Shown: in pieces, positions 1,840 through 24,170 of the stretch
How positions within the stretch are numbered: position 1 is the stretch's first letter
Layout: each line of letters begins with the position of its first letter
IMG/VR virus record: IMGVR_UViG_3300037258_001099
Coordinates: 64,001-128,000 of that record
Strand: one strand, 5' to 3'
Source: a virus
DNA: 64,000 nt
Made by a program: the position numbers and the translations under genes
The notes under the pieces: generated by a model
Databases searched by the model: none
Seen by the model: the letters and a program-made list of their open reading frames with translations, nothing else
What the model was told of the DNA's origin: nothing

Positions 1840-1977
1840 TTTGCTGCTGTAAAAAATTATATTTGCTTGCTTTATGATGTAATATATTTTATAATGGTAG
1901 AGGTAACTAAATACTGTTGCCCCCGCGATGCTGATACATCCAGGGGCGTGAGTCAATTCTGTTTAGGAGAATTAACT

Positions 1978-3998: not shown

Positions 3999-4012
3999 GG
4001 TAGTTTTCCTTT

Positions 4013-4321
4013 CTAGTCTTCTATGCCGCCAAGGGCATCCAATAACTGATCATCTGCTGGAGGAGTAGGATCTTTTCTATTCTCCTCCAGCTTAGTTGCT
4101 TTTTTTAAGGAAGAGGGGACCGTAACGATCCCTCCTCCAGGCCAATATGTAGAGTGCTGAACCTTCTCGGTCATTAAAAGGTAACGTTCTTTTAAGATGC
4201 TGTGAAGTAAGCTTGTGACGCTACCAGCCTCTCTTCTTGCGGCTTCCTCTTGATAGAATCGCTCTAGTTCTGAGCCCTCTTCCATTAGGATGATAAACTG
4301 GCGAGTCCCTTGCTTTCTCAT
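4013..4321 (-). CDS. ParR-like ribbon-helix-helix adaptor 1
   Basis: Coupled to parM (ATGA overlap); beta-strand-helix-helix pattern; acidic C-terminal tail. Confidence 0.6.
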   Translation of the reverse strand: MRKQGTRQFIILMEEGSELERFYQEEAARREAGSVTSLLHSILKERYLLMTEKVQHSTYWPGGGIVTVPSSLKKATKLEENRKDPTPPADDQLLDALGGIED

Positions 4322-7711: not shown

Positions 7712-7847
7712 TACCCTCAGAGGAGCACATTGTACTTTCTCTTGCCCTGTGAGGGGGTCACAAGCTGATCCCTTCAACAGATGCTTTCCCCTTCACGGGT
7801 AGTGCCTGCTTGCCTTGCAGGCTTTCCCTCTCGTGGAGAAAAGCTCT

Positions 7848-8897: not shown

Positions 8898-9671
8898 ATG
8901 GGGGAATTGTTTCTACTCCCAACCCATCCAGACTACCCATATGGGCAGAAAAGTGGTGAGGGGGATCAACCTTTAAAGGAGATATGTTCCCCCTCGTCTG
9001 TCCATAATATGGAGCAACTCTCCAAATCCGAGCTGCACGCCTACATGGTAACCCATAGTGTCAAAGGAAATAAATTTATGCCAAAAAGAGCGCCATTCGT
9101 CGGCGATACCAAGACCTTCGCTTCCCCAACTGATAAAGAAACCACCTTTGTCATCAGGCGGCTCTCGATCCAGCAAGTCATGATCTACCGCGATCGCAAC
9201 TCCAAGGTCCGCTACATCACTGAGGATAACGATGACAACAACCAGAAAGTGGTCACTGAGCGCGATTACCCCGCAGGCTCGATGACCGTGGATATTGCGG
9301 TGCTTGGCCTTGCCTCCTGGAACATCGCCGATCTTGCTGGCAATAACGTTCCTGTTTCTGAGGAGAACATGCTCAAGTATCTGGAGCCAGAGGAGCTGGA
9401 CTTTATCTCAGAGAAGGTTCTCGATGTCAATCCCATTCTCAGCAATCGGGGGAACCAGAAAAGCAAACCTGGAGAAAATGCTTCGCCCTCAGATGGCAGC
9501 AGTGATGGAACAGATGACACACCGACAGTACGTCAAATACTGCCAGGAGACGGAGGTGGAGAAGGAACACTACGAGACTCACAGCTATCCACATCCGTTT
9601 CTCCTCATCTGGATGGAGGCCAGACGACAAGTCAATCCCATCACGGGAGCTATGAGTTATCCCGAACCTAA
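8898..9671 (+). CDS. Tail assembly chaperone (gpG-like); alternative start 9078
   Basis: Between tube and tape measure; FVIRRLS, LASWNIAD..G..VPVSEENM. Confidence 0.7.
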   Translation: MGELFLLPTHPDYPYGQKSGEGDQPLKEICSPSSVHNMEQLSKSELHAYMVTHSVKGNKFMPKRAPFVGDTKTFASPTDKETTFVIRRLSIQQVMIYRDRNSKVRYITEDNDDNNQKVVTERDYPAGSMTVDIAVLGLASWNIADLAGNNVPVSEENMLKYLEPEELDFISEKVLDVNPILSNRGNQKSKPGENASPSDGSSDGTDDTPTVRQILPGDGGGEGTLRDSQLSTSVSPHLDGGQTTSQSHHGSYELSRT

Positions 9672-9819
9672 CAAAGGCTACCTGGAGCAAGATGCCGAGC
9701 TGATGCTGGCCTTTGAGGTCCTGGAGGAGCTCTACGAAGAGCATGAAGCTGAGCAGGAACGCATGGAAGAGATAAAGAAGGCTAGATCAGCGCATTTCGG
9801 GACCCAGCAGTCGGGATAG
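9448..9819 (+). CDS. Tail assembly chaperone C-terminal part (gpT-like), probably expressed by frameshift
   Basis: Overlapping frame with GYLEQDAELMLAFEVL; GGGGG run at 9448-9452. Confidence 0.6.
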   Translation, partial: GGTRKANLEKMLRPQMAAVMEQMTHRQYVKYCQETEVEKEHYETHSYPHPFLLIWMEARRQVNPITGAMSYPEPNKGYLEQDAELMLAFEVLEELYEEHEAEQERMEEIKKARSAHFGTQQSG

Positions 9820-9879
9820 GCCAACGTATTAAGGAAAAGTCGGTTTCACGCACATTTTTGGAAAGGACAAGAGCAGTTC

Positions 9880-12800
9880 TTGTTCCCAGAAGAAAAGGAA
9901 CGTGAAACCGTGTCAACATTCGATTACAGCGCCTGGTTTGGATTTCGTCCCAGGATTTCATCCACAGCGGAAGGGTTTGCACGCATGCCAGACTATGATC
10001 CCTCTCAGTTTGCTCCCCGTCCTGTGTGGAACCCTGCAACAGGTAAGTGGGAAGATCCAAACAAAGCAAATCGCACAATCAACCGCAGACCTACCATTGA
10101 GGCAGAGATTGCTGAGCGACAGCGCAGAGGATATTCTCTCTCTGATATTTCGCTTGCGCCACATGCTATCCCTCAAGGTGCCGCAGGTCCAGAGAAGTAT
10201 CAGTCACCAGAGGAATGGAAGAAAGCTCAGAGCACCTTCCAGTCTGTACAAGGCGCTCTTGGAGCCTCCACTGGTAAACAAGCTGCTACAGAAGCCCTAC
10301 GACGAAGTGATCTCAATAAGGCACTACGCCAGGGTCAGATAAGTACAGCAACTGCTGGCAAAGCTGCCATGATCACTGAGCGCATGAACCAAGAAGGGAA
10401 GCGTACACAGGCAGCGAACGAGGATCAGCTCAGAAATATGAGCACCCAGCCAGATGTAACGCCCTTCACCATCGTGCCACAAAAGAATCTTCCGTCACGA
10501 GCAAGCTTGCTCTCCCAGATGGAAGCTGCACAGCCCCAGGTAATAGCACTGCAACAGCAAACGCAGAAAAATGCCTCCGAGCTTATGGGCAAACAGGTAA
10601 AGATGCAGACGGTAAGTCAGTTCTTACCTGCCCTTTCACACGAGCAGCTTGGAGGGGTGCAGAGCAAGTCACAATATGTAGGGTTTCGTGGTGGTCCTGG
10701 TGGTGGCAAAAGTAAAGCGCTCATATCAGCCATCTTCAACAATCTGCTCAACCAAGGGCTCTCATCTGACGAGGCTGCTAGACTTGCCAAAAATACCATC
10801 TTTCTAAGCCAGACCAAATCAGCAGTCAGTCGCATGCGCACCAATATGGAAGGTGCAGAGCAAATGATCCCAGGCTGGGACGAGAAGGCTAGATCCGAGC
10901 AGATGATGACACTTGGCCGCTTTGCCATGAGTCTGCTTAATCGTAACCAGTCATCAGGCGGATCAATCTTACAGCAGATGGGGGCAGGTGACTACAAGCC
11001 GCTCTACCAGGGATCTGGCGAAAACATTGAAGAGGAGATGGCAAAGCGCGAGCATGAGCAGGTTTTGAAGCGCGTGCTCACCCAACATGGTTACAATACT
11101 CGGATCAATAATGTAGGCCAGCTTGCCCAAACGATCGCCGAGATCAAAGGCACAAGCAGAGAGACTTTTGAGGCAGCCTACAAACGAGGGAAGTCTCTGC
11201 AAGACCAAAATAGTCAACGGCAAGTCATCCCCTCTGAGCAGGCGCTCTACTTGTATCAGAACGAGCTGCATAGAACGAAGCAGTATGACATCAATGATGT
11301 GCCAGGAATGCTACTCAAAGCTTCGACGAAGAAGAATGTTCAGTTTCCGCGATTTGGCATGATTGCCAATGATGAGAGTCAGGACACGCCACCCATTTAT
11401 GGACAGCTCTTCCAGAAACTCCTTGGTCCATCTGGCCGACTCATTACGGCGGGCGACCCATCTCAGCAAGCGATCCGTCGCCCATGGGATATCGATCAGA
11501 CCATGAAGAGTGCTGGAGCCAAAATCCATGAGCTGAGCATCAATTTTCGTACTGGCCGCCACAATGTCTCCAGTCTCAATCCACTGCTCGCAACCCAGGC
11601 CATGGCTGATCAGCCAAAGAGCCCATTCCAGGCTGCATTCAAAGAGCATGATCAACCTATCAGAACGCATGTGGAGGAAAATTTCCCTGCCATGCACCGA
11701 GCCATGTTTGGCAACTGGATGAAAGACATGGGTCTGACTCCAGCCATGATTGCCAAAAACATGCAGTCAGGGGTCCATCCATTCTCAAGTCCAGATGCTG
11801 GGAGTCTGCTTCCAGGAGATGCACCGTTCATCTTCCAAAGAGATGAGGAAGGTCGTGGTGCATTCCTCAAAGAGATGCGGTCTACGCTGAGCAAGCACAT
11901 GGACGAGGCGATGCTTGATCGCTTCATGCAAGAGAACATCTCCAGCGAGCCACCTACCGCAAGCAATGTGATGTCTGCTCGTGCCTACACGGTTGGTCAA
12001 GCTAGGTCCCATGAGTTCCCTGAAATTCATGGCGACGTAACTCCGCAAGGTCTCTGGCCTCCAGAAGGTCATATAGGCCAGATCTATACGATGCAGTCAA
12101 GGGCTATTAATCAGCAGCATCTCTACTATTCTAAGAAGAATATGCCCAAGGGAACGCAGCATGATCTGGCTACCTCGTTCTTTGGAGGCCAAGAAGTGCC
12201 ACATGGTTGGGACCAACTTATGCAGGCAGGAACAGAAAATCTGGTAGATCAGCAAGGTATGGCTGTCGCAGATTTACCAGAGGCGATGCAGTATGCCTAT
12301 AACAGCCCACATGCCATGAACCTGGGGACTTCTCCAGAGCGGCCAACAGAAGACCCAGAGATGGTGAAGCAGTTTGTTGAGGAAACACTCTTTGCCAACA
12401 AGTTCTATAGTCCACCAGTTGACTCTGGATCTGGGCTGCTCCAGGGCAGCAAAGATGATCAATTTGCCGCTGACATGCGCACTTACGGTTTCAACGCCGA
12501 GATGCTCTCAGGGCAAACCAAGCGTTCTGTGATCTCACAGTCCAAGATGGAGATGGCAGCGCGTGCAGCCCAAGATATGATCATGAATGGCCCTGGTGTG
12601 GTCTCGCGGGGAGCAGCAACCTTCAACAGCGAAGGTGTCTGGCAAACCAAGCGTATGGGCAGGTCAGAGATCGAATCCGTTCCATCGCCCAAAGAGTTCA
12701 TGGATCGTATCCATCAGATGGCGGGACCTATTCCAGCACGTCTCATGAAGGACGATATCGAGCGAGAAGCTTCCTCAGAGTTTCCTGAGATCGATAATAT

Positions 12801-15800
12801 CCAGATGAAGCCATGGGCAGGAAAGGAGCAATCTCAAGAGGCTGGTGACACGACGCAGGTCCGTCAGTGGATGGGACACGCACTTGCTATTCCAGGGTTC
12901 CGCAATGTTCCAGAGATCATGGGCAGACTGAATGATCTACTCACTCATCCCAAGGTTCTCCAGTCGATCACGGGGCCACTTGGGAAGCTTGCTAAAAGTG
13001 ATCCAAAGCTTGCTCAACTTCAGAAGCGGATCAATCTTGGTCGGCTCGATGGTCACGAAGCTGAGAAGATCAAGAACAGGATTGCCAGACTTATAGGACT
13101 GGGTGCAAAAATCACACAGACTCAGCAAGTCCAGCTTTCTGCACTGCAATCGAAGATGAAGAAGGTTGGAGGAGAGCCTCTTCACCGGATCATCTCGCGG
13201 GTAGTGACACCAACACTCACAGGTACCAACAAACCTAATCCGCTCTATCATGCAGGGTTTGCAGATCTACTTCATGGGGCCGCAGCAAAACAGCTTCCCT
13301 GGCAGCATCTTGATCCAGACTTTGTGGGCTCGCTGGGAGGTAGGGCACGACAATTTGAAAGAGAGGGAGACACATCCAAGCGCCGTTTCTGGGGTGAGGC
13401 GGCAGGAAAATTTGAAGCATTTAGTTCCCAGGTGCATCCAGATGGATCGCCGCTCACAAAAGAGATGCTTGCCCACGCAGCTCCTCACGAGCGAGCACTT
13501 TTAGAGCGGATCTTCGAGAGCAAGCATGGTGGAGATATCCTGCCCTATAACCACCCAGATGTCGAGAGCCGCGTAAGCCAGTTTACCTATCAGCGAGGCC
13601 TCGTCAATCGTGGCATGGTCTCTCCCGAAAACATGGCAGCAATGAAGCTTTCTCGTGCTAACTCCAGGCGTGCTCCTGGTGAGACGGAGTTTGCCAACCT
13701 CTACATGGCGTTGCAAGGTGGTCTTTCGGAAGGAAGCGGCTCTGGTATCGAAGACCCAATGAACACACTTGCACGGGGAGGAGGCAGATTTGCAAGTCTT
13801 GGCGCTGGAACGCGACTTGACTCTATGATCCAGAGACTTACGGAACTCTCTGATCCTGCTGGTCGTGTGCTCACTTCAGCCGAACGTGCGGGGTTTGCTG
13901 AGCAACTTGGGCAGGCACAGTATGTGAAGTCTGAGCTCTCCAGTCCTACCAACTGGCGTGATTGGGCGCATACCCTGCGGGCGGCAAGCCTTGCCTCAAC
14001 TGGGAAAAACCTCCATGATCCAAAGCCCTTGGAGGAAGGAAAACCCAACGATCCAGTGAGAGAGCTTTTCCGCCACCGCGACCAACATGTTAAAAATGCT
14101 AGGTCTCTAGAAGGGCTGACAGGTCTCATCACTCCGCTCAAAGAGGCAACAGCACATTTACAAAAGACAGGATCACTGCGGCGGTCTCATGTGGACGAGA
14201 TCCTGAGAGCGTTTGGCTACGATCCGGCGGACAAGAATCTTACCGCGCTCCGAAAGCTAGAGGAGAAGAAAGGCTTTAGTAGCCGAGGCGGCCAAGATCC
14301 AGATCTACCAATGGCAAAATTGATCGGGCAGTTCCCAGACCAGATGAAAGATATGCGGGAGCAGCTTACCCGTGTGCCGATTATCCAGGGATCGCAGCAC
14401 TACACTTATATGGGAGGCGAGCCTGGATATGCCGATATCAAAAAAGCACAGCAGGGTATTCCCTCTGGGATCATGGGAACGCTGCATCCGCTTCCTAAAA
14501 CAGATGAGACTGGGCCTGAAGAAGAATTTGGTCTCTCCAAAAATGTCCAGTTCCACATGAGTCGGGACATGTTCTCCAAATCCGATCTGGGAGTATTCAA
14601 CCCAGAGAAGGCCAAGAGATTACCAGAGCATGTTGCAAATATGGATTATGCGCCACTCATGCAATTTGAAGGAATGCACCAGGGCAGCCACGTAAGCTTT
14701 CCAGTTCACCCAGAGCAACTTGCTCTTGCGGACACCAGTGGCCTCGAACAGGAAAAGGGTATCCAGGATCTCTTCAAACGTGCTAGGTGGACAGGTCTCA
14801 GATGGAAGGAGCAAGATCAAAATAAAAAGCAGATAGAGGTATTGCGTCGGTCAGCAGACGCTAAGCATAGAAAGGAGCATCCCCTCTTTACGCCAAGGCA
14901 GCTTGCAAACCCTCGGGGATATGCTAGTTCCTTTGGAGTTGATCCACGGACACTCCCGCCAGCGTACAGATCACACATAGGAGGGCAAATTAACTCTCCA
15001 AGCAAGGTCCTGGCGGCAGCGCAGGTAGCCCAGCACAGCCAGGGTCAGATGGCACGAGGGCTGGTGGGAATGCAGCAGCCAGTGCCAGAGCCCATGCCGT
15101 CTTATCGTGGATACCAGCTTGGTGGAGATTTAAACGAAGCGGCCATTGACTCGATCATTCGCAGCCAGCAGAAGAAGGAGCTAGAGGCAAATACGGCAGA
15201 GACACCTGAGTTTGGGCCAGTTGATCCAAATTTGCAGCCGATGCTTCCTGGCTTTGGTGGAGGCGGGGGAAATCTTCCCCCAAGGCCACCATCGGTTCCT
15301 ACACCAGAACCAGAAAACGATCCCAGTAGAATGTTCTCGGCTTTGTCTTCTCCAGAATTGGAGAGGGCACAGCCTTTTCTTGCGCATCCCAGATTCAACC
15401 AGCTCTACAAAACTTTCGAGACAGGACGGCTCTTTGGAAGACAAGTAACGTGGCAAGGGCATCTTGAAGATGAGCACGCCTTTAATCTGCGTCATCCAGA
15501 GCTCCATAAGAGTGATCTTGAGCTAACGAGCGGCCTCTTGGGGAAATCAGTTCCTCCGCCTCCACCTGATGCATCTACCATGGCTCCACGGCAAAGACAA
15601 GAATCATCCGGCTTGCGCCAAAGAATGATGGTTCAACATGCATCTGGTCTGGCACAGGCAAGAGATAGGAAAAACGATCCGCTGCTCGCAACGATTGGGC
15701 AGCATATTCCTGCCCAGGTGCCACTAGCACCAAGCCAAGGGGGAATTCCACCCCACGACATGGCTCAACTTCTTACACATCTACGCAGCGGGAAACAGTC

Positions 15801-18800
15801 CTCTGATATCGCCCTGGCAAAGCAATACGGCAAAGCGCCGATGCAATACCTAGGTAGTATTTCCGGTAATCAGAAACCATTACCGGAAATTGCAGCAGTA
15901 GCTCCTGGCGCGAGAGGGTCCTGGGATGAAGATTCGTATGGCTTCCCAGCAGAAGCTCCTCCTGATGACCTTTCTATGGGTGACGAGGAAATGTTTGAGT
16001 TTCACCAAGCTCTGGGTCAGATGGATGCGTTCGAGTCACCTGCAAAAAAAGCTACTCCAGCCCCTGTAAGTCCAACGCCTATTCCTGCTCCTGCCTCAGC
16101 GGGGCCAGCGTACCAACTCTCTCACTTGCCAAAGCTGATGCGATCACAAAGGCGCACCCTTATTAGAGGAGGCCAGATTCACCCCTTTGAGGAAGGAAAG
16201 CCTGGCATTGGTGTTGGAGGAACCAATCCTGAGCAACGTGATGTGTTAAATGCTCCTGATCGCCGCATGATTGTGCAAGGTGGGCCTGGCACGGGCAAAA
16301 CTGAGACCATGATCATGAAGATCGCGGACCTGATTGCTAAAGGCCATGTCGACCCAAGCCGTATCATGGCTTTCTCTGGTATGCACTCAGGTGTCTCTGA
16401 GCTCAACACCAGGATGAGCAAATTCTTGCAGCCATTACTTCCCCATGGAGAAGAGCACAAGCTTCCTGCGGCTCGTACACTGCACTCTCTAGCCCATCAG
16501 GTCCTCTTCCAAAGAGGCAAGCCAAGTCCAGCACTGGGTGGCATTGGACTTGGTTGGATTAAGGGGGTCATGGGTAACCCAAGCGAGGAAGAGCTCGCAA
16601 GGCAAACTCCAGAGACCCAGGAAAAGCTCCGCGACCAGCAACGTCAATTCTTGCACGGGGCTATTAAGCAAAACTTCCCGAAAGCCAAATGGCTTCCAAG
16701 CACACCAGACGAGCTTGATCGTGTCATGGGGGATATCAAGAAATACAAGTCTAGTCGCACTGGAGAGGACCCACTTTACGATAAGATGATAAAAAAAGGC
16801 CTTGGGGATATTTCTCATGGCAAAAAGTTCACCCATGCCGGAGCCCTTGCTGTCTATGAGCAATCTGTGGCGCAGACAGGCAACATTGATTTTGAGGATC
16901 TGATCACCTACGGCAGTTCTGCTCTTGGCCGTCTCGGAAGCGAAGCTATCCCGCAAGGTGTTGAGGGAACGCAGCTCCTCGCCTATGACGAGGCGCAAGA
17001 CGCCAACCGAGAGAACCTGGGATTTGTCTCCAATCTCGTGAGTGCTCTTGGACCAGAAACACATGCAGTTGTCGGTCTTGATCCACTCCAGTCGCTTTTT
17101 CAGGGAGCTGGAAGCCTGCCTGGAGAGCATATTGTGCCAGCCATTCAGCAGATGCTGGGTGGAGCAGGACACATTCAGCTTCGCGGAAACTATCGCAGCT
17201 CCATGAAGGATGTGGCGCTCTCCAATTCGATCTTACAAATGCATGCCATGAGCGGAAAGAAAGGACTTTCCCCACTTCAGGTCCCCTATTCACAGAAGCT
17301 TGGATCAGAGCCAAGCTTCATGCTTAGAAAATCCCAGCCTGAGCTCTATAAGAAGATGTTTTCCTCTATGCTTGCCCATGCTGGTGTCTCTCCAAAAACC
17401 ATGCGAGAAAATATTTTGGCTGGAGAGCATCCCTTTAAAGGAGTGGACTGGAACCAGCCAGACAAGATTCGGCCAGGGGAAATGCCTGCACTTTTTATGA
17501 TGAAGGCGCAGCGCTCACTCTTTGAGCATATTGCCCCATCAATCATTCAGGGGCTTGATCCAGCGGGCAAGATTGATCCTGAGATGGCAAAGAAAGCCTT
17601 TGGGCAGATGTATCGGCCAGGTCTGCCTGGCAAAGCCGCAAGCGATGAAGAACAGACTATATTTGCCAATAAGCTCGCATTCCGAGGACTCACCGTGGGC
17701 CAGAGTAGAGGACTCTCCTTTGAGAACCCACATATGGATGCCTCCCCCGTAGGGGAATGGCGGCGTCCTGGGGAGAAGGCTGAGGAGTCGTACTTGCACA
17801 ATCTGGGAGTCATGGTTTCTCGCACAAAAGAGGGTGGACGCAGCTTTATTGGGGCGGCAAGCACCCCGTTTTCTGGCGATCAGATGAAGGATTTTGTCCA
17901 GACACAAGGAAAGCACTACCGCGAGACCTCTCCAGAGTCACATAATCGTGGATCGGTATGGTATGGGGAACCTGGCTCTGATCCGCTATCTGTCCATCCC
18001 CGCAATGAGTTCGATACCCACGAAGGTCAACCAGTAGCACACTACTTTGGCGAGATTATGGGACTCCAGAAGAAGCAGGTAGATGACTGGAAAGCGATGA
18101 AGAATTCCCCTGCCCAAGCGGCTGTTCCAGCACAACTTGTCTCGCAAGAAGCAGTTGCCGCATCACCCCCTAGAAAGCAAGATCTTGCCAAGACAGCTCT
18201 GTCTGACCTTCAATCACGTGCGCCATCTGGCAGGAGTGCTCAAATAGAGTCGCTGCTAGCAAAGACGGTTGCATCGCCCCACGCGTCAGATCCTAGCCAG
18301 CACGCAATGGTCGGTCAACTCCACACAGAGTTTGCCAAACTTGGTGGCTCAGCTTCCTGGTCAGATTTCATGAAAGCAAAAGCACCAGAGATTGAGAATC
18401 TAGCAGGACCACAAAGCCCTGTGACCAAGCTTGCTCAAACAATGGCCGCATCCCCTGATAAATATGCGCCTGGATCTACGGCGATATCAGCCAAAGATGT
18501 CACCGTCAATGCTGCCGCCAATTCCAAAATCACCGTTGCAGGGGGCGCACAGGTTGATGTGATCCGAGCAAGCACGCCTCCTCTCGCCTCTATGGCAGCA
18601 GTAGGTAAAGGCGCATCGCCCGTGAGCTCCACCATTGCCAAAAATACACCAATAGAGGACTTACCTCTCTCGGGAGCAACTCCTGTCACGCGTATTAGCC
18701 GCAATCCTTTTGCAAGCACTGGAGGCATTCCGTCTACGTCAACAACGACAGTGGCTCAGGTCACAGGTGGTGCTCCTTCTGGGACAAGTGTTGGCGCAAG

Positions 18801-21800
18801 CACAGTAGGTGGGCCATCATCTAAAGGTGGCATTGGCTCGTTGGTTATCCACCCAGGAGCATCTGTTGGCGCTATCAACGTCTACGGAGGTGGACCAACT
18901 ACGGGCGGAGGCGGAGATGGTGGGGACAAAGAGCCGCCAAAGACCACGCTTGCGAAGTTCTCCGACGGGCTCACGAATACTGGTCGTACCTTCGCTCGTA
19001 TTGGGCAGGAGATGCAGTACTTCGGGCAGCTCTTCAATGATGTTACGCAGAAGGCACTTGAGCAAGGATCAGACTATAGACTTGCCTCTGGGACATTTAA
19101 AGCATCTGGCGCAACCGCTGACAGGGGCTTCTACGACTTTGCCAATCCTGCGAGCGGCATCTCTCAGATGCAGACGAATAGCCTGCCGATGTTCTCCAAG
19201 ACCGATATTGCACAAAATCTCCAAAATGTAGCAGGCATGGTAGGAGGCCAGCTTCCACCTTCTGGGACGTCAACGAGTATCATGCAGCTTGCAGCACTAA
19301 CTGGGGCAGATCCGACACAGCTTACCTCTCAGATAGGCTACATCAGTGGCTCGATGGGACAAGGGATGACCGCTACACCTGCAATCGAAGGATACACGGG
19401 GAGCCTCTATCACGGCCAGGTAAACGCAACCAACCTTGCTCCAACGCTCCAAGCGGTCTCCTCGGCGCTTCCCAGCATGCAAGGGCTCACATTTGGACAA
19501 GGCAACAATCTAGGAGCCTTCTACGGCCTCATGAATGCGGCTCAAGGCGGAGGCATGACAGCGGCCAATATGCCCGATGTCTCTGACCTTACGAATTCTC
19601 TGGCTCAAGTAGGCACTGCGCCTAATCTCAATCAGCAGGCAGCACTCAATCAGCTTTTCCCAGGACAGCTCACAGGCGGTGCCCAGCTTGCCCAGTTCCA
19701 ACAGCAACAAGTGGGAATGAGTGAGCAGGCAGGAGAGCTTGGTCTTCAGCAGCAGTTCAATGTGCCAGGCCTTCAGATGCAGATTGGCAATGCCAACGTC
19801 GCGATGCAGCAGGCTAATGTTGATCTCGGGCAGATCCAACAACAGCAAGGCTATGCCCAACTTGGCCTCTCTCAGCAAGAGCTTGGATCAAGCCAGGCGA
19901 ACCTTGATTACCAGAGAGACCAGCATGACTATCAGCAAGCCAGCCTGAACTATCAGAAGCAGCAGCTTAATTATAGTGAGGCACAGCTTGGCTATTCCCA
20001 GCAGCAATTTCAATATAGCCAGGCTCAGTACAGCCAAGCGCAACTCCAGCAGCAATATGCGCAAGCGAGCTTTACCCAGCAGCAATATGTCCAGACACAG
20101 GAGTATGGCCCCATTGGTGCCGACACTGGACGGCAGAGCTACTTCGATTTCATGCGTAATCAGCAAGCGGCAGGATACAACCCGCTCTCCGCTGAAACTG
20201 GGACCCAGTTCAAGCCGTCAGCGCCTCAAGGTATCCAGAACATGCAGTTCTACGCAGGGATTGAGAACCAGCGTCAGATGAGCATCCTCTCGCGGTCACC
20301 GCTGCTCTCAGATGCTGCATTTCAGCAACAGCAAAAATACTTAAACGAGCAAGAGGCCTTCTATAAGGAGCAGCTAGACTTAACAAACGAGCAGCGTACC
20401 TTTGACGTGACCTGGGGACAGAAGATGCTCGACTCCCAGCAGAAACTCCTCGACCTACAAGGGCCACTGCTCACTACACAGAAGAAGCTCCTGGATATGC
20501 AGCAGCCAATGCTCGATACCCAAAAGAGCCTGCTGAACCAACAGCAAGGGCTTCTCAACACTGAGGGGCATCTCCTCGATCTCCAACAAGGCATTCTGGA
20601 TACCCAAAAAGGCATGCTTGTCTATACCCAGGAAGCCCTTGATCAGCAGGGCAAAATCCTGGGTATCCAGCAGACCCAGGTGGGCCTTACAGCGCAGATG
20701 AATGATTACCAAAATGCTCAGCTCAAGCTTCAACAAGCGTATCTGCCAGCCCAGCTTGGGGCTCTTCTCGCAGTCCAGACAGCCATGGAGCAGCAAATTA
20801 ATGGACAAGGCCCTGTCAATGGCACAAATCCCACGCCACAGCAGATCATTAAGCAGCTCTCTCTTATCCAGAATCCAACCCAGCAACAGGATATTATGCG
20901 CAACCTGGGACTGCCTCCCAATCAGGTAAATACCCTGCAAACTATCCTCAATGGTATGAAGAAGGCTGGCGGCTATGATGCAGCCATGAGTGGGGTTTCC
21001 CCTGCCGACAAAAGCATCCAGGCGCAGGTGAACAACCTCATCAAGTCAGGAGCCTTTGCTGGACAAACAAATCAAGCTGCACAGTCTGACACCTCGCTCC
21101 TGCTTGGTGGCACAGCAGCGCAGTGGACAAAGTTCACGCAGGCTTTTGATACGGCCAACAAATATGCAGAGCAAACAGCAAACGCTGCATCCTCCATCAA
21201 CGACTATATCAAGGGCTGGGGAACCTTCTTTTCTATGGCTGGTCCTGCCATTGTTGGCATCGGCATGCTGCTCCAGGGTCTTGGGCTTGGCGGACAGGCA
21301 CTGAACTTCTTTACATCAGGAGGTGCCTCTGCTGCTGCTGGCGGGGCTGCAAGCTGGGTAACACAAACAGCAGCTCCAGCAGTCGCCTCGGCGGCATCAA
21401 CAACGGCAAGCGCAATCTCGTTAGCCCTTACCACTGCTGCCCCTATCATCATTCCTCTGGTTATTGCTGCTGCCGGAACGGCAATTATAACATTCGCATT
21501 AAAGTGGCTTGGGGATCAGGCATCAAATATTAATCAGCAGAACTTTAACAACCCAAAGAATGCAACCTCAAATCTTCCGTCGTGGCTTCAGTGGCTTCCT
21601 GGCAAAACAGCTTCTCCACAAGTTGTTGCTTCTGCGCAATCGAAGCAAGATGCGTACCGAGCCTCTCACGGCGGAAAAGACATGCCGATGCCTGATGAGA
21701 GTCCGCTCGCCAAGGGAACGCTTCTTGGGGATGCCTGGAGCGGTATTAAGACAGGCGTAGGCAACGCCTGGAATTGGCTGACAGGTGGAAACAACAAAGC

Positions 21801-23646
21801 TGAAGCATCTCCCGCTCCAGCAAATCCCAAAGGACATGACTTTGGGGCACAACCAAATGCACCAGTGATACCCACGCCACCATCGGTATCACCATGGAGT
21901 ACGGCATACAAAGCTATTGTGGGGGTATTTGCGCCGCTAGGCAAAACTTTCCAGGGCTATTGGAACGCTGTAGCTAGCGGATCTGACTGGTTAAGAACAT
22001 ATATCAAAGGTAAAATAAGCGATTCATGGAATGCTATCGTCACTAAGTTCTCTCCTCTAGGTAAGTTTTTTAGCAATCTTTGGGTTGATGTACAAAATGT
22101 ATGGAAATCAGCTCCTGGATGGCTACACGATAGATTTCAAGATGCATGGAACAGGGTAACAGGGGTATGGTCCCCTCTCGGTAAGATTTTCCAGGGCTTT
22201 TGGAAAGACGTACAGAATGTATTTGTAGGAGCACCCAAGTGGTTCCAAGGTGAATGGCAAATTGCGTGGAATAATGTAACAAATATATGGTCTCCAATCG
22301 GTAAAACATTCCAGGGATACTGGAATGATATCATGGGAGGAGTTAATTGGCTCAGAACGAATATATCTAATACATGGAATAGTATAAAGGTAGATACTGA
22401 AAATATATTTCACAATATGATAAACGGGATTATCGATCATTTAAATGATGGAATATCGGGCGTAGAGGGATTTATTAACTTTTTTGGGCAAGGACTCGAT
22501 AAAATTGCTGGGGCCTTCCATGTCAGTGATCCTATCCCACAGAATAATCACCTCGGTCGCATTCCCCACTATGCTCTTGGTACCGACTCCCATCCTGGCG
22601 GCCCTATGGTTGTAGGTGAAAAAGGTCCCGAACTGCTTTTTGCTCCAAAGGGCTCTACAGTTGTTCCGGCTGATCTGACCGAAGCGCTGCTCTCAATGTT
22701 TAAAGGCAAGGTTCCAGGCTATGCTGGCGGCGTTGGTGATATCACAGCGTCTATCATCGATTGGGTAACAGGTGGCGCTAAATCGTTATTGGACAACGTT
22801 GTGAGCACTCTGCATATCACGGCTCCAAATCTCGGACCAATGAAGGACATTTCATCTGGTGTCTTCAACTCATTGGAGAAGTGGGCGCTAAGTTGGATCA
22901 GTTCGATTTTGCCATCTTTCGGTGGCAGTGGCAGCCAAGGGAGCCCAGGAACACTGACAGGTGTTCCTGGCAATGTTGCTTCATGGATACAATCCGCTAT
23001 GGCGCTCACGCACGTGCCTGCAAGCTGGCTAGCAGACCTAGAAATTATCGCTATGCACGAATCGGGCGGCAATCCGAATTCTATTAACCTTTGGGACAGC
23101 AATGCCCTAGCTGGTCATCCTTCACAAGGCCTGTTTCAGACGATACCTGGCACTTTCGCCGCCCATGCTCTTCCAGGTCACGGAAATATATTAAACCCGA
23201 TAGACAATGCTGCTTCAGCTATTGGGTACATAGAGGGTAGATATGGCGATGTGTTCCATGTGCCTGGAATAGTCTCAATGAGTCATGGTGGCCCTTATGT
23301 CGGGTATTCTGGAGGCGGCATACTCTCTGAACCTGTTGTTGGCACGGGACTGAGTACTGGGACACGATATAGCTTTGCAGAGGCTGCGCCAGAGGCAATT
23401 GTGCCACTCTCAAAGCTTTCCATTGCGCTCAAGTCTCTTCCCAAGAGCGGGAGTAGTGCCGTCTCTACCCAGCCAACAACAATATCTTCAAATTCTGGAC
23501 AAAGCATTCAAATAAAGAGCCTGATTGGGACCGCAACCATTAACATAAACACCAATGGAACAAAAATTGCTGACACCGAGAAAGATGAGCTGATGAGTCA
23601 GATCATGGATCTCTTTAGTGATGCGCTCAAGCAGTTGAACACCTAA
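9880..23646 (+). CDS. Giant tape measure protein with two SF1 helicase-like domains and a C-terminal lytic transglycosylase (start uncertain, possibly ATG 9985)
   Basis: Position after chaperones; Q-rich heptads, two TM segments, Trp-periodic repeats, VVGEKGPEL, IAMHESGGNP...SQGLFQ (SLT); two sets of UvrD-like motifs. Confidence 0.85.
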   Translation: MFPEEKERETVSTFDYSAWFGFRPRISSTAEGFARMPDYDPSQFAPRPVWNPATGKWEDPNKANRTINRRPTIEAEIAERQRRGYSLSDISLAPHAIPQGAAGPEKYQSPEEWKKAQSTFQSVQGALGASTGKQAATEALRRSDLNKALRQGQISTATAGKAAMITERMNQEGKRTQAANEDQLRNMSTQPDVTPFTIVPQKNLPSRASLLSQMEAAQPQVIALQQQTQKNASELMGKQVKMQTVSQFLPALSHEQLGGVQSKSQYVGFRGGPGGGKSKALISAIFNNLLNQGLSSDEAARLAKNTIFLSQTKSAVSRMRTNMEGAEQMIPGWDEKARSEQMMTLGRFAMSLLNRNQSSGGSILQQMGAGDYKPLYQGSGENIEEEMAKREHEQVLKRVLTQHGYNTRINNVGQLAQTIAEIKGTSRETFEAAYKRGKSLQDQNSQRQVIPSEQALYLYQNELHRTKQYDINDVPGMLLKASTKKNVQFPRFGMIANDESQDTPPIYGQLFQKLLGPSGRLITAGDPSQQAIRRPWDIDQTMKSAGAKIHELSINFRTGRHNVSSLNPLLATQAMADQPKSPFQAAFKEHDQPIRTHVEENFPAMHRAMFGNWMKDMGLTPAMIAKNMQSGVHPFSSPDAGSLLPGDAPFIFQRDEEGRGAFLKEMRSTLSKHMDEAMLDRFMQENISSEPPTASNVMSARAYTVGQARSHEFPEIHGDVTPQGLWPPEGHIGQIYTMQSRAINQQHLYYSKKNMPKGTQHDLATSFFGGQEVPHGWDQLMQAGTENLVDQQGMAVADLPEAMQYAYNSPHAMNLGTSPERPTEDPEMVKQFVEETLFANKFYSPPVDSGSGLLQGSKDDQFAADMRTYGFNAEMLSGQTKRSVISQSKMEMAARAAQDMIMNGPGVVSRGAATFNSEGVWQTKRMGRSEIESVPSPKEFMDRIHQMAGPIPARLMKDDIEREASSEFPEIDNIQMKPWAGKEQSQEAGDTTQVRQWMGHALAIPGFRNVPEIMGRLNDLLTHPKVLQSITGPLGKLAKSDPKLAQLQKRINLGRLDGHEAEKIKNRIARLIGLGAKITQTQQVQLSALQSKMKKVGGEPLHRIISRVVTPTLTGTNKPNPLYHAGFADLLHGAAAKQLPWQHLDPDFVGSLGGRARQFEREGDTSKRRFWGEAAGKFEAFSSQVHPDGSPLTKEMLAHAAPHERALLERIFESKHGGDILPYNHPDVESRVSQFTYQRGLVNRGMVSPENMAAMKLSRANSRRAPGETEFANLYMALQGGLSEGSGSGIEDPMNTLARGGGRFASLGAGTRLDSMIQRLTELSDPAGRVLTSAERAGFAEQLGQAQYVKSELSSPTNWRDWAHTLRAASLASTGKNLHDPKPLEEGKPNDPVRELFRHRDQHVKNARSLEGLTGLITPLKEATAHLQKTGSLRRSHVDEILRAFGYDPADKNLTALRKLEEKKGFSSRGGQDPDLPMAKLIGQFPDQMKDMREQLTRVPIIQGSQHYTYMGGEPGYADIKKAQQGIPSGIMGTLHPLPKTDETGPEEEFGLSKNVQFHMSRDMFSKSDLGVFNPEKAKRLPEHVANMDYAPLMQFEGMHQGSHVSFPVHPEQLALADTSGLEQEKGIQDLFKRARWTGLRWKEQDQNKKQIEVLRRSADAKHRKEHPLFTPRQLANPRGYASSFGVDPRTLPPAYRSHIGGQINSPSKVLAAAQVAQHSQGQMARGLVGMQQPVPEPMPSYRGYQLGGDLNEAAIDSIIRSQQKKELEANTAETPEFGPVDPNLQPMLPGFGGGGGNLPPRPPSVPTPEPENDPSRMFSALSSPELERAQPFLAHPRFNQLYKTFETGRLFGRQVTWQGHLEDEHAFNLRHPELHKSDLELTSGLLGKSVPPPPPDASTMAPRQRQESSGLRQRMMVQHASGLAQARDRKNDPLLATIGQHIPAQVPLAPSQGGIPPHDMAQLLTHLRSGKQSSDIALAKQYGKAPMQYLGSISGNQKPLPEIAAVAPGARGSWDEDSYGFPAEAPPDDLSMGDEEMFEFHQALGQMDAFESPAKKATPAPVSPTPIPAPASAGPAYQLSHLPKLMRSQRRTLIRGGQIHPFEEGKPGIGVGGTNPEQRDVLNAPDRRMIVQGGPGTGKTETMIMKIADLIAKGHVDPSRIMAFSGMHSGVSELNTRMSKFLQPLLPHGEEHKLPAARTLHSLAHQVLFQRGKPSPALGGIGLGWIKGVMGNPSEEELARQTPETQEKLRDQQRQFLHGAIKQNFPKAKWLPSTPDELDRVMGDIKKYKSSRTGEDPLYDKMIKKGLGDISHGKKFTHAGALAVYEQSVAQTGNIDFEDLITYGSSALGRLGSEAIPQGVEGTQLLAYDEAQDANRENLGFVSNLVSALGPETHAVVGLDPLQSLFQGAGSLPGEHIVPAIQQMLGGAGHIQLRGNYRSSMKDVALSNSILQMHAMSGKKGLSPLQVPYSQKLGSEPSFMLRKSQPELYKKMFSSMLAHAGVSPKTMRENILAGEHPFKGVDWNQPDKIRPGEMPALFMMKAQRSLFEHIAPSIIQGLDPAGKIDPEMAKKAFGQMYRPGLPGKAASDEEQTIFANKLAFRGLTVGQSRGLSFENPHMDASPVGEWRRPGEKAEESYLHNLGVMVSRTKEGGRSFIGAASTPFSGDQMKDFVQTQGKHYRETSPESHNRGSVWYGEPGSDPLSVHPRNEFDTHEGQPVAHYFGEIMGLQKKQVDDWKAMKNSPAQAAVPAQLVSQEAVAASPPRKQDLAKTALSDLQSRAPSGRSAQIESLLAKTVASPHASDPSQHAMVGQLHTEFAKLGGSASWSDFMKAKAPEIENLAGPQSPVTKLAQTMAASPDKYAPGSTAISAKDVTVNAAANSKITVAGGAQVDVIRASTPPLASMAAVGKGASPVSSTIAKNTPIEDLPLSGATPVTRISRNPFASTGGIPSTSTTTVAQVTGGAPSGTSVGASTVGGPSSKGGIGSLVIHPGASVGAINVYGGGPTTGGGGDGGDKEPPKTTLAKFSDGLTNTGRTFARIGQEMQYFGQLFNDVTQKALEQGSDYRLASGTFKASGATADRGFYDFANPASGISQMQTNSLPMFSKTDIAQNLQNVAGMVGGQLPPSGTSTSIMQLAALTGADPTQLTSQIGYISGSMGQGMTATPAIEGYTGSLYHGQVNATNLAPTLQAVSSALPSMQGLTFGQGNNLGAFYGLMNAAQGGGMTAANMPDVSDLTNSLAQVGTAPNLNQQAALNQLFPGQLTGGAQLAQFQQQQVGMSEQAGELGLQQQFNVPGLQMQIGNANVAMQQANVDLGQIQQQQGYAQLGLSQQELGSSQANLDYQRDQHDYQQASLNYQKQQLNYSEAQLGYSQQQFQYSQAQYSQAQLQQQYAQASFTQQQYVQTQEYGPIGADTGRQSYFDFMRNQQAAGYNPLSAETGTQFKPSAPQGIQNMQFYAGIENQRQMSILSRSPLLSDAAFQQQQKYLNEQEAFYKEQLDLTNEQRTFDVTWGQKMLDSQQKLLDLQGPLLTTQKKLLDMQQPMLDTQKSLLNQQQGLLNTEGHLLDLQQGILDTQKGMLVYTQEALDQQGKILGIQQTQVGLTAQMNDYQNAQLKLQQAYLPAQLGALLAVQTAMEQQINGQGPVNGTNPTPQQIIKQLSLIQNPTQQQDIMRNLGLPPNQVNTLQTILNGMKKAGGYDAAMSGVSPADKSIQAQVNNLIKSGAFAGQTNQAAQSDTSLLLGGTAAQWTKFTQAFDTANKYAEQTANAASSINDYIKGWGTFFSMAGPAIVGIGMLLQGLGLGGQALNFFTSGGASAAAGGAASWVTQTAAPAVASAASTTASAISLALTTAAPIIIPLVIAAAGTAIITFALKWLGDQASNINQQNFNNPKNATSNLPSWLQWLPGKTASPQVVASAQSKQDAYRASHGGKDMPMPDESPLAKGTLLGDAWSGIKTGVGNAWNWLTGGNNKAEASPAPANPKGHDFGAQPNAPVIPTPPSVSPWSTAYKAIVGVFAPLGKTFQGYWNAVASGSDWLRTYIKGKISDSWNAIVTKFSPLGKFFSNLWVDVQNVWKSAPGWLHDRFQDAWNRVTGVWSPLGKIFQGFWKDVQNVFVGAPKWFQGEWQIAWNNVTNIWSPIGKTFQGYWNDIMGGVNWLRTNISNTWNSIKVDTENIFHNMINGIIDHLNDGISGVEGFINFFGQGLDKIAGAFHVSDPIPQNNHLGRIPHYALGTDSHPGGPMVVGEKGPELLFAPKGSTVVPADLTEALLSMFKGKVPGYAGGVGDITASIIDWVTGGAKSLLDNVVSTLHITAPNLGPMKDISSGVFNSLEKWALSWISSILPSFGGSGSQGSPGTLTGVPGNVASWIQSAMALTHVPASWLADLEIIAMHESGGNPNSINLWDSNALAGHPSQGLFQTIPGTFAAHALPGHGNILNPIDNAASAIGYIEGRYGDVFHVPGIVSMSHGGPYVGYSGGGILSEPVVGTGLSTGTRYSFAEAAPEAIVPLSKLSIALKSLPKSGSSAVSTQPTTISSNSGQSIQIKSLIGTATININTNGTKIADTEKDELMSQIMDLFSDALKQLNT

Positions 23647-24170
23647 TGGGAAATGCAAGTGGCTTTGGCATTGGAACATACCAGCCTCTCTCTGGGGTAA
23701 CAACAACCATCGGATCAGGCTTTCCAAATGCTCCATTTCAGCTCGTCCATCCGTATGCAGGTACCTACGGTGGCAACTATGGGTACGTGATCGACACGAC
23801 GATCAAGTCACCAAACGAGGTCCAGTGGACTCCTGCGCCAGAAATCGGCATTGATGGGATTGGCAACTCTGTCATTCGTGGATTTCCACAGATTGAGTGG
23901 GACTACCCGATTATGCGGCCAGATCATTGGTACAAGCTAAAATTTTTGAGAAATCAGTCAGCTAAAGTGCCACCTGCATATCAGTACATTGTGTTGCTCC
24001 AGTACCCCGACGTTTTTGGATCAGGGGTGCTCGCACAACAACTAGCACGATTTGAGCCCATCACCTTTTCAAGCCGAACATCTGCGATCTTCCAATCGGT
24101 CGTCTTGAAATTCACGTACGTGGGGCAAGCACAACTGCTTTCTGGAACACCTATTTCTATCATTGCATAA
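23646..24170 (+). CDS. Putative distal tail/minor tail protein
   Basis: Coupled directly after tape measure; beta-rich; function inferred from position. Confidence 0.5.
   Translation: MGNASGFGIGTYQPLSGVTTTIGSGFPNAPFQLVHPYAGTYGGNYGYVIDTTIKSPNEVQWTPAPEIGIDGIGNSVIRGFPQIEWDYPIMRPDHWYKLKFLRNQSAKVPPAYQYIVLLQYPDVFGSGVLAQQLARFEPITFSSRTSAIFQSVVLKFTYVGQAQLLSGTPISIIA

Follow-up and report, generated by a model that had tools for sequence, protein, structure and literature searches.

A soil phage with a 137-kb genome encodes a giant tail tape measure protein with two UvrD-like DNA helicases fused into its front part. The gene lies within the late structural block, both helicase modules retain intact motifs, and the fusion is conserved among uncultured relatives. 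From this conserved arrangement it seems likely that DNA motors of the phage itself are delivered to the host along with its genome. The evidence comes from a window of 64,000 nucleotides, the whole stretch of DNA analyzed here (positions 64,001 to 128,000 of IMG/VR record IMGVR_UViG_3300037258_001099), to which all nucleotide coordinates refer unless stated otherwise.

A giant gene in the late structural block

A single uninterrupted open reading frame of 4588 codons runs from a TTG at 9880 to 23646 on the plus strand, in what the first-pass annotation took for the tape measure slot. Translation more likely begins at the ATG at 9985, giving 4553 residues, because the database copy of the protein (P0002) and a relative (P0003) both begin at that Met, 35 codons inside the longer frame (MPDYDP / MVYDP), and the sequence GGAAGGG lies ahead of it. 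Upstream are the terminase (TerL), portal and major head genes and a tail gene, followed by two overlapping frames in the position usually taken by tail assembly chaperones. The features discussed below are as follows.

7815..8885, plus strand: upstream tail protein gene (phrog_290 'minor tail protein', E 4.6e-20)
8898..9819, plus strand: two overlapping ORFs (8898-9671 and 9295-9819) in the usual tail assembly chaperone place
9880..23646, plus strand: giant tape measure gene (ORF; probable start ATG 9985)
9880..10611, plus strand: N-terminal region, residues 1-244, kept in closer relatives (BLASTP segment map)
10612..12159, plus strand: helicase module 1, residues 245-760, UvrD-like SF1A (Pfam, AlphaFold2, Foldseek, VIA, invariant residues)
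12160..16191, plus strand: inter-helicase region, residues 761-2104, about 1340 residues, conserved in the family
16192..17874, plus strand: helicase module 2, residues 2105-2665, UvrD-like SF1A (Pfam, PDB sequence matches, AlphaFold2, Foldseek, VIA)
17875..18966, plus strand: low-complexity Ala/Ser/Gly/Pro-rich spacer, residues 2666-3029 (P+G+S+A+T fraction up to 0.66)
18967..20811, plus strand: Gln-rich conserved region T1, residues 3030-3644, family-specific (family alignment)
20812..23577, plus strand: region like known tape measure proteins, residues 3645-4566 (PHROGs, tblastn)
21403..21513, plus strand: strong hydrophobic, membrane-type segment, residues 3842-3878 (Kyte-Doolittle scan)
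21892..22359, plus strand: four 40-residue Trp-rich SPLGK repeats, residues about 4005-4160 (sequence)
23038..23250, plus strand: SLT lytic transglycosylase domain, residues 4387-4457 (Pfam PF01464)
23646..24170, plus strand: 174-residue gene right after the tape measure gene (tblastn, five of five metagenome loci)
25440..27563, plus strand: 707-residue gene downstream of the tape measure gene (tblastn, four of five loci)

The five related metagenome loci all begin inside the giant ORF, and synteny here refers to the downstream genes only. The 707-residue product is probably a tail tip or baseplate protein, given a weak PKD_4 match and ESM Atlas assignment to 'tail protein' clusters (scores 0.86-0.91). 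Searches of PDB sequences with phmmer returned nothing for this protein or for the upstream tail protein, and the two overlapping frames at the chaperone position have no family match.

The C-terminal third is a conventional tape measure

From about residue 3030 to residue 4588, the protein has what is expected of a tape measure, namely a ruler, a membrane portion and a portion that cuts the cell wall. The tape measure PHROGs 167 (E 7.7e-72), 4070, 5448, 1535 and 58 match residues 3645-4566, and tblastn with residues 3031-4588 matched 957 phage records; among the 15 matches listed (residues about 4006-4543), nine are annotated as tape measure proteins. The SLT domain scores 30.5 bits against a Pfam cut-off of 21.3. 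PHROG matches and SLT domain together bear out the first-pass reading of the C terminus as a tape measure, and the Trp repeats noted at the same time are found as four copies of a 40-residue SPLGK..W unit at residues 4018-4138. Of the transmembrane pair then proposed, the strong segment at residues 3842-3878 stands, whereas the first, a weaker Gly-rich segment placed by eye at about residues 3779-3805, falls below the Kyte-Doolittle threshold used. A membrane segment and a muralytic domain are thus both present, a combination shared by many tape measures from phages of Gram-positive bacteria. The muralytic domain itself is swapped within the family, being SLT in this protein and P0003, and M23 in P0004, P0005 and the family consensus. 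Immediately ahead of the PHROG-matched region, the Gln-rich, helical T1 has no PHROG match, yet conservation across the entire protein peaks within it, at residues 3405-3515.

The phage appears to have no tape measure protein other than this ORF product. Five reading frames of at least 600 residues occur in the 137-kb genome, and none of the other four lies in a tail position; three of them were checked and gave no tape measure match, and the remaining one is on the minus strand at 7-10 kb of the genome. The protein is three times the usual size of a tape measure because two helicases are built into its front part.

Two intact helicase modules

Both modules score above the 23-bit gathering cut-off of the Pfam UvrD-helicase family PF00580, module 1 with 54.2 bits (E 2.3e-14, residues 254-529) and module 2 with 82.1 bits (E 6.8e-23, residues 2116-2407). 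Module 2 also matches PcrA, UvrD and AdnB among PDB sequences by phmmer, a search that was empty for module 1. The modules are distant from the named bacterial enzymes, scoring 22-44 bits with the NCBIfam equivalog models for PcrA, UvrD, Rep and helicase IV against cut-offs of 543-1168, and neither has a match to Pfam UvrD_C (PF13361) at E<=1, such that the 2A half is recognized by structure only.

Structure prediction, proposed in the first-pass annotation as a check on the two segments, returned complete helicase folds. AlphaFold2 models reached pLDDT 87.1 and pTM 0.85 for module 1, and 86.6 and 0.82 for module 2. Foldseek matched them to UvrD structures 3lfu (module 1, E 7.9e-18) and 4c2t (module 2, E 3.5e-19), and VIA aligned module 1 with E. 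coli UvrD 2is4_B (Z 30.4, 447 residues) and module 2 with 2is4_A (Z 26.3, 446 residues). These alignments span residues 1-641 of the UvrD chain, and so take in both RecA-like domains, 1A and 2A, plus the inserts 1B and 2B. Both modules are accordingly modeled as complete SF1A helicases of the UvrD/Rep/PcrA type.

All 16 motif strings listed at first pass occur once each, in the order and places given for them, spanning LSHEQ (residue 252, nucleotide 10633) to YTMQSRA (residue 736, nucleotide 12085) in the first domain and NPEQ (residue 2116, nucleotide 16225) to VSRT (residue 2646, nucleotide 17815) in the second. Motif names follow the UvrD/PcrA consensus, together with PcrA/UvrD alignments. 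Module 1 carries Q256, GGPGGGKS (271-278), DESQD (498), AGDPSQ (524), NFRT (555), TVGQARSHEF (704) and YTMQSRA (736); module 2 carries Q2119, GGPGTGKT (2134-2141), DEAQD (2370), DPLQS (2401), NYRS (2437), TVGQSRGLSF (2605) and VSRT (2646). Across 12 of 12 family sequences, the Q motif, Walker A GxGK, DExQ(D), motif III Gln, motif IV Arg and motif VI Arg are invariant in both modules. In module 1 the invariant positions are Q256, G274/G276/K277, E499/Q501, D526/Q529, R557 and R741, and in module 2 they are Q2119, G2134-K2140, D2370/E2371/Q2373/D2374, Q2404, N2437/R2439 and S2647/R2648 (12 of 12 in each case). The Walker A Lys and Walker B DE that the earlier annotation had seen in both modules are therefore kept, and the motif VI Arg with them in all 12 members. 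Motif V (T-x-H-x-x-K-G-L-E), seen here as TVGQARSHEF and TVGQSRGLSF, varies within the family, its Lys being mostly replaced by Arg, and the aromatic residues that UvrD has in motif III are missing from module 1. Both helicases appear catalytically intact and apparently active.

A reduced 2B subdomain had also been suspected, and the motif spacing agrees. In all 12 family members, 146-175 residues separate motif IV from motif V in module 1, and 158-174 in module 2. Of 135 ordinary helicase matches, 63 had both motifs, and their median spacing is 269. With some 100 residues fewer in this stretch, the 2B region is shortened in both helicases.

The N-terminal region has no Pfam or PHROG match. 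The inter-helicase region, the last part of which is Pro-rich in composition, has no match in Pfam, NCBIfam or PHROGs and no usable one in the ESM Atlas. The low-complexity spacer is poorly conserved in the family.

A family of uncultured relatives

Among 1.84 billion cluster representatives, 14 match helicase 2 at E<=1e-30, beyond which scores drop to ordinary helicases at about 1e-12; ten of the 14 are 3891-6121 residues long. The search for tape measures of the same architecture suggested at first pass yielded, with P0003 included, 11 further full-length proteins in which helicase 1 is likewise followed by helicase 2 and then by T1/T2, plus one 5'-open ORF of at least 4283 residues at locus L004. 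The latter contains the fragment P0011, which covers helicase 2 together with a portion of helicase 1 and the beginning of T1. Overall identity within the family is 25-53%. By sequence comparison, the order N terminus, helicase 1, linker, helicase 2, tape measure is kept in at least a dozen uncultured relatives. One perhaps incomplete protein, P0005, has helicase 2 only (2248 residues, Met start, on a 38.6 kb contig), and two helicases may therefore not be obligatory.

In a quick IQ-TREE search, the 12 helicase 1 and 12 helicase 2 sequences each form one group (SH-aLRT 95 and 99, respectively), and eight ordinary UvrD-like proteins, hand-picked as an outgroup from the 135 ordinary matches, stand apart (SH-aLRT 100). 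The tree topology indicates that helicases 1 and 2 descend from one old duplication.

A metagenome scan confirmed five of 319 pattern matches as family loci. Scans of IMG/VR gave no family member among the matches listed, only the weak generic helicase loci L001 and L002, and a scan of genome contigs gave none either, so no prophage copy was found. The gene had no megablast match among 50,697 phage records, and tblastn with residues 1-3000 against the phage collection matched a single record, a Bacillus phage helicase at 24% identity; neither search of phage records thus found a cultured relative.

Possible roles of the helicases

How long-tailed phages complete genome entry once the pressure in the capsid has dropped is a question of long standing. 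The answers known so far rely on host or phage RNA polymerases, as in T7, N4 and a model for P23-45. Tape measures with two intact DNA motors would offer a different solution.

The explanation that we consider best, and to which we give about even credence, is a tape measure with a conserved helicase cargo that works on the entering genome; that is, we infer, by analogy with gp96 of Thermus phage P23-45, that the helicases are present in the virion and act on DNA as it enters. The N-terminal two-thirds of the protein would be the cargo, made up of two paralogous helicases and about 1,600 residues of unmatched sequence in the N-terminal and inter-helicase regions. At infection, the tape measure would exit the tail before the DNA, its C-terminal part opening the wall and building a membrane channel. 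The N-terminal part would adjoin the leading DNA end and, by virtue of that position, would reach the cytoplasm, where ATP is available. Both helicases could then remain attached at the channel and handle the incoming genome there. Their most likely role would be that of a stationary motor, pulling the DNA inward and/or opening its end and occupying it.

Several points count against this reading. Motif V is degenerate, the aromatic residues of motif III are lost in module 1, UvrD_C has no match in either module, and P0005 has a single helicase. Storage in the virion is a further difficulty. The lumen of a siphovirus tail is about 4 nm wide, and folded helicase modules are unlikely to be accommodated in it as a trimer; the cargo would therefore need to be stored unfolded or extended, or be removed. 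As for activity after delivery, the short 2B and the presence of two modules per chain may render the helicases active without a partner, since deletion of 2B is described as activating the Rep monomer (PMC13238157). Natural, covalently paired UvrD-family helicases with a short 2B thereby bear on the debate over helicase activation. A more specific proposal, which we advance only tentatively, is a self-contained DNA import machine in which, after the C-terminal part has built the channel, tethered, 2B-poor motors use host ATP to reel the 137-kb genome from the capsid through it. If true, it would be a phage-encoded, virion-delivered translocase behind the pressure-independent phase of genome entry.

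Two other roles are each rather unlikely, though to be taken seriously. In the first, the helicases would be injected cargo for counter-defense. On the incoming DNA they would strip off or outcompete host nucleases (RecBCD/AddAB, for instance), restriction complexes or CRISPR effectors. Precedent exists in the polyvalent proteins, very large proteins that contain helicases and are believed to accompany the DNA into the host, for which, with DarB of P1 as the archetype, such a counter-defense role has been proposed (PMC5512222). The 1,600 or so conserved, unmatched residues would fit a cargo of several activities, and the exchange of SLT for M23 is typical of conflict-driven modular proteins. 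Yet no methylase, nuclease, effector-type peptidase or typical polyvalent domain was found with Pfam, NCBIfam or PHROGs, and the architecture is unusually fixed at 25-53% identity, whereas polyvalent proteins shuffle their domains. Moreover, the main text of Iyer et al. 2017 never uses the term 'tape measure', and the UvrD-like helicases described there are confined to giant plasmid proteins of actinomycetes (PMC5512222).

Comparably unlikely is that the helicase part never enters the host, being cut off around tail assembly or working in the producing cell, for example as an ATP-driven chaperone that prevents the long ruler from collapsing, or as an enzyme that processes DNA late in infection and is kept in fixed ratio to tails. 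Tape measures are reportedly processed in lambda (gpH to H*) and T5 (pb2), globular domains fit a tail lumen poorly, and the 360-residue low-complexity spacer between helicase 2 and the ruler could be a cleavage zone. Against this, Pfam and NCBIfam reveal no protease domain in the protein, a helicase fold with strictly conserved DNA-motor motifs has no obvious part in protein assembly, and the tape measure gp96 of Thermus phage P23-45 is a virion protein that retains its enzyme (PMC10770324).

It is far less probable that the entire chain is stored extended and sets the length of a very long tail, with the helicase motifs as relics. Enzyme-bearing tape measures can indeed count fully towards tail length, but the ATPase residues are invariant in both modules over 12 proteins at 25-53% identity, and AlphaFold2 gives confident, complete helicase models.

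Last, an assembly or gene-calling artefact fusing a helicase gene to a tape measure gene, a chimera that the first-pass annotation had named as a possible refutation, is refuted for practical purposes: the record is a metagenome-derived virus contig and the sole sequencing run that contains the window is a DNA run, probably the contig's own source (no RNA run carrying the window was listed), but the same order of parts is repeated in 11 full-length proteins on other contigs and at the separate locus L004, and G+C stays level, at 0.515-0.538, between 10 kb and 22 kb in the window. A 22,744 nt contig from a second assembler also agrees over 9500-24000 with 0 differences, but derives from the same sample and so lends no independent support.

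Comparison with known systems

The best matches of the two modules in fold are UvrD, Rep and PcrA, which share their Pfam family (PF00580), with Z of 26-30, about 446 of about 640 residues aligned, and the motif order Q, I, Ia, II, III, IV, V, VI in common. Structural alignments show 12-21% identity, however, NCBIfam equivalog scores reach 25-44 bits where the cut-offs exceed 900, the motif IV-V stretch is about 100 residues shorter here, and the two modules share one chain that is joined to a virion protein.

AddAB, AdnAB and RecBCD likewise place two SF1 motor modules in one particle, and the first-pass annotation had drawn an analogy to AddAB/AdnAB. We consider it weak, because no nuclease was found and the two motors do not differ in type, SF1A in each case. 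In those complexes each motor is a subunit of its own and carries a RecB-type nuclease domain; here Pfam, NCBIfam and PHROGs detect no nuclease domain in the protein, although a very divergent one could lie in the approximately 1,600 unmatched residues. AdnB, AddA and RecB do appear among the structural matches, but at Z 16-22 versus 24-30 for UvrD/Rep/PcrA. DarB-type proteins differ in another way, being described as pairing an SF2 helicase with a methylase and traveling in the head (PMC5512222).

The first-pass annotation knew of no tape measure with this architecture. For helicases that holds, as no paper on a tape measure-helicase fusion was found, although the supplements of PMC5512222 and PMC10770324 could list such proteins; for N-terminal enzymes in general it does not, since P23-45 gp96 is described as a 5002-residue tape measure whose N-terminal part is a virion RNA polymerase (PMC10770324). 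Both are giant tape measures (5002 residues versus 4553-4588 here), and both combine, in one chain, an N-terminal nucleic-acid enzyme with C-terminal membrane and cell-wall-hydrolase domains, a peptidase in the case of gp96. The enzymes differ, a two-barrel RNA polymerase there and two SF1A helicases here, and tblastn with residues 1-3000 matched no Thermus phage, P23-45 being perhaps absent from that collection. By these comparisons, the helicase tape measure resembles gp96 in architecture but appears to be no relative. The state of the evidence also differs: virion presence and RNA polymerase activity of gp96 are experimental (Chaban et al. 2024, Nat Commun, PMC10770324), whereas for the helicases both are predicted. 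In the model put forward in that study, the enzyme is located at the pore of the tape measure and acts on entering DNA (PMC10770324), much the position that we favor for the helicases. Two such enzyme-bearing designs would extend the single published example toward a general principle, in which the tape measure serves as a delivery vehicle.

Gene structure and order of parts

The giant tape measure gene is a single open frame of 4588 codons counted from TTG (9880..23646, plus strand), carried by a record that consists of one virus contig of 136,990 bp, of which the window covers bases 64001-128000. G+C content is even along the gene, and a 22,744-nt contig of a second assembler, probably from the source sample, spans 9500-24000 with 0 differences. 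ATG 9985 appears a likelier start than TTG 9880 because GGAAGGG precedes it; P0002 (4553 aa), the protein as stored in the database, also starts 35 codons inside the ORF (MPDYDP), as does P0003, its closest relative (MVYDP). All 16 motif strings quoted in the first-pass annotation occur once each, in the right order and where it had placed them, and its observation of two helicase modules within a tape measure is confirmed in full. The parts of the protein, numbered from the TTG, are as follows.

Parts of the giant tape measure protein
aa 1-244: N region, no family match
aa 245-760: helicase 1 (H1)
aa 761-2104: inter-helicase region, conserved in the family, no family match, Pro-rich at its end
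aa 2105-2665: helicase 2 (H2)
aa 2666-3029: low-complexity spacer
aa 3030-3644: T1, Gln-rich, containing the best-conserved block of the protein
after T1: part recognisable as tape measure, bearing the membrane segment, Trp repeats and SLT

Five tape-measure PHROGs match aa 3645-4566, while T1 has no PHROG match. This later part carries a strong hydrophobic segment (aa 3842-3878), four 40-aa Trp-rich SPLGK repeats and a Pfam SLT match (aa 4387-4457). A tblastn search with aa 3031-4588 matched 957 phage records, none reaching 80% query cover; the best 15 of these 957 match aa ~4006-4543, and in 9 of the 15 the annotated feature is a tape measure protein of Bacillota phages. Of the five frames of at least 600 aa in the genome, none besides the giant gene stands out as a tape-measure candidate. 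The other four are the ribonucleotide reductase (RNR) gene, a 707-aa gene, a frame of 653 aa that matches no PHROG, and a 1010-aa minus-strand frame at genome 7-10 kb, well away from the tail genes.

The helicase modules

Against a cut-off of 23 bits, the Pfam UvrD-helicase family (PF00580) scores 54.2 bits at aa 254-529 and 82.1 bits at aa 2116-2407. Models built with an alignment of family members reached a mean pLDDT of 87.1 and pTM of 0.85 for module 1, and 86.6 and 0.82 for module 2. In Foldseek searches of the PDB, UvrD, Rep and PcrA came top (E 7.9e-18 for module 1 and 3.5e-19 for module 2), followed by AdnB, AddA, RecB and HelD. VIA-align superposed 447 residues of module 1 on UvrD 2is4_B (Z 30.4, rmsd 4.6) and 446 residues of module 2 on UvrD 2is4_A (Z 26.3, rmsd 3.7). 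Because these alignments span UvrD residues 1-641, both RecA-like halves are present in each model. As modeled, then, the two segments are complete UvrD-like folds, despite the lack of a Pfam UvrD_C match in either, which bears out the first-pass assignment of helicase domains.

The two modules align to one another over ~460 residues at 23% identity (E 7e-12). The NCBIfam equivalogs for PcrA, UvrD, Rep and helicase IV all score below their cut-offs (22-44 bits against 543-1168), and by sequence the modules are best described as a distinct kind of UvrD-like helicase, orthologous to no named enzyme. The strong reduction of 2B suggested in the first-pass annotation is supported by shorter distances from motif IV to motif V: 149 (H1) and 168 (H2) residues in the window protein, and 146-175 (H1) and 158-174 (H2) across 12 of 12 family members, against a median of 269 (range 94-347) in the 63 of 135 ordinary UvrD-like matches that carry both motifs. 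Deletion of 2B is described as turning the Rep monomer into an active helicase, and UvrD as being activated through dimerisation (PMC13238157).

A family with a probable single ancient duplication

A word-indexed protein search limited to lengths of 2523-8029 aa yielded P0003 (4332 aa, 42% identity in the best local alignment), whose source name is 'SLT domain-containing protein/superfamily I DNA/RNA helicase', and P0004 (4669 aa). When 1.84 billion cluster representatives were searched exhaustively with HMMER, module 2 matched 1924 of them at E<=1e-3; 19 of these reached <=1e-10 and 14 reached <=1e-30. Beyond the top 14, matches weaken to E ~1e-12, with only partial matches to ordinary helicases. 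Ten of the 14 best matches are 3891-6121 aa long.

When ten segments of the window protein were mapped by BLASTP onto 16 proteins, helicase 1, helicase 2, T1 and the later tape measure part (T2) appeared in one order in 11 of them (P0003, P0004, P0006-P0010 and P0012-P0015). Ten of these 11 have a recognisable inter-helicase region, and ten, all but P0013, a recognisable C-terminal end. A search for homologous tape measures, which the first-pass annotation had suggested, thus finds the same architecture in 11 further full-length proteins. P0011 and P0016-P0018 are fragments, P0011 belonging to an ORF, open at its 5' end and at least 4283 aa long, on a metagenome locus, L004. The family therefore has at least 12 full-length members and one 5'-open ORF, all uncultured. 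The reading of the long ORF as a chimera is rejected, since 11 other proteins share its order of parts.

P0005 (2248 aa, Met start, on a 38.6-kb contig) has helicase 2 only and M23 instead of SLT, and is 68% identical to the window protein in T1; it may be a natural one-helicase form, or else a miscalled start or truncated gene call. The wall-cutting domain at the C-terminus is swapped within the family: the window protein and P0003 have SLT, whereas P0004, P0005 and the family consensus have peptidase M23. The SLT at window 23038-23250 marks the site of this hydrolase swap relative to P0004-P0015.

In an alignment of the 12 full-length proteins (25-53% identity to the query), Q256, G274, G276, K277, E499, Q501, D526, Q529, R557 and R741 are invariant in module 1, and Q2119, G2134-K2140, D2370, E2371, Q2373, D2374, Q2404, N2437, R2439, S2647 and R2648 in module 2. 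In a quick maximum-likelihood tree that also included 8 ordinary UvrD-like proteins picked by hand, the 12 H1 and the 12 H2 sequences each fall on one side of a branch (SH-aLRT 95 and 99; outgroup split 100), and the groupings inside the two sets run parallel. This separation and parallelism indicate that a single duplication preceded the diversification of the family, both copies having since been kept under selection.

Genome neighborhood

Large terminase, portal and major head genes lie upstream on the same strand, with a phrog_290 tail gene (7815-8885) nearer to the giant gene. The late structural run, from head to tail genes, is interrupted by HNH endonuclease and reverse-strand actin-like ParM genes.

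Features upstream of the giant gene
178-813: thymidylate kinase gene
1867-2901, plus strand: HNH endonuclease gene
4318-5508, minus strand: actin-like ParM/ALP partition gene
8898-9671 and 9295-9819, plus strand: two overlapping ORFs of no family, in the usual place of tail assembly chaperones

The second overlapping ORF is in the +1 frame relative to the first, with no slippery site identified, and any frameshift in the pair would be +1 or -2, not the usual -1. Directly 3' of the giant gene lies a 174-aa gene, with the 707-aa gene farther on; these follow the giant ORF in 5/5 and 4/5 related loci, respectively, all of which begin inside that ORF. Between them, a 353-aa gene (24182-25243, plus strand) has no family match and occurs in 0/5 related loci, and may have been inserted into the tail module recently. 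The RNR large subunit gene (27787-30897, plus strand) has a Pfam Intein_splicing match (46.9 bits, aa 464-670) and appears to carry an intein, its barrel domain split in two stretches. The window also contains an ORF of 408 aa at 37330-38556 (minus strand).

Proposed function

If the protein is oriented like lambda gpH, its C-terminus, with the muralytic and membrane parts, would lie at the tail tip and its N-terminus would point toward the head and the leading DNA end. In the current view, long-tailed phages store their tape measures in the tail tube in a metastable state and drive them out into the envelope at infection to build the DNA channel (PMC10770324). That order would make the helicase part the final stretch of protein to pass the channel, just ahead of the DNA. 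It would reach the ATP-containing side while the remaining chain tethered it to the channel, and a fixed motor translocating on DNA would move that DNA. Import by a tethered motor parallels, in its logic, the transcription-coupled entry that has been proposed for P23-45 gp96, a Thermus phage tape measure with an N-terminal virion RNA polymerase.

That the helicases are delivered to the host and act on entering DNA strikes us as an evenly balanced proposition; that they serve as a tethered import motor is a more tentative one. Instead of importing DNA, or besides doing so, the helicases may unwind or cover its end and thereby shield it from host end-processing enzymes or restriction complexes. 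We nonetheless favor import over pure counter-defence, which we consider unlikely. The architecture is established, in that the product of a tape measure gene bears two intact, conserved SF1A motors on its N-terminal side; the functional part of the first-pass interpretation is plausible.

Packing looms as the main difficulty for delivery: a tail lumen of ~4 nm should be too narrow for two folded 60-kDa helicases in three copies. Too large for the lumen when folded, the cargo would have to be stored extended, present in fewer copies, or removed.

Relation to known systems

Literature searches on both terms, at listing level, showed no paper describing a tape measure-helicase fusion. A separate word search with module 2 turned up no look-alike beyond this genome. 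A jumbo-phage survey names tape measure and helicase separately (PMC7824862). The polyvalent proteins of PMC5512222 are injected giants with helicases; in that account UvrD-like modules occur only in giant plasmid proteins of actinomycetes, and the term 'tape measure' is absent from its main text.

As far as the published account goes, the closest system is P23-45 gp96, which shares its topology with the window protein, whereas its enzyme is different and unrelated (PMC10770324). The enzyme-bearing P23-45 tape measure, of 5002 aa, defines a very long tail (PMC10770324), which suggests that its enzyme part counts toward tail length. Because it appears to do so, a helicase part that counted likewise would predict a tail of ~680 nm, not ~230 nm. 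The window protein extends the known enzyme-bearing tape measures.
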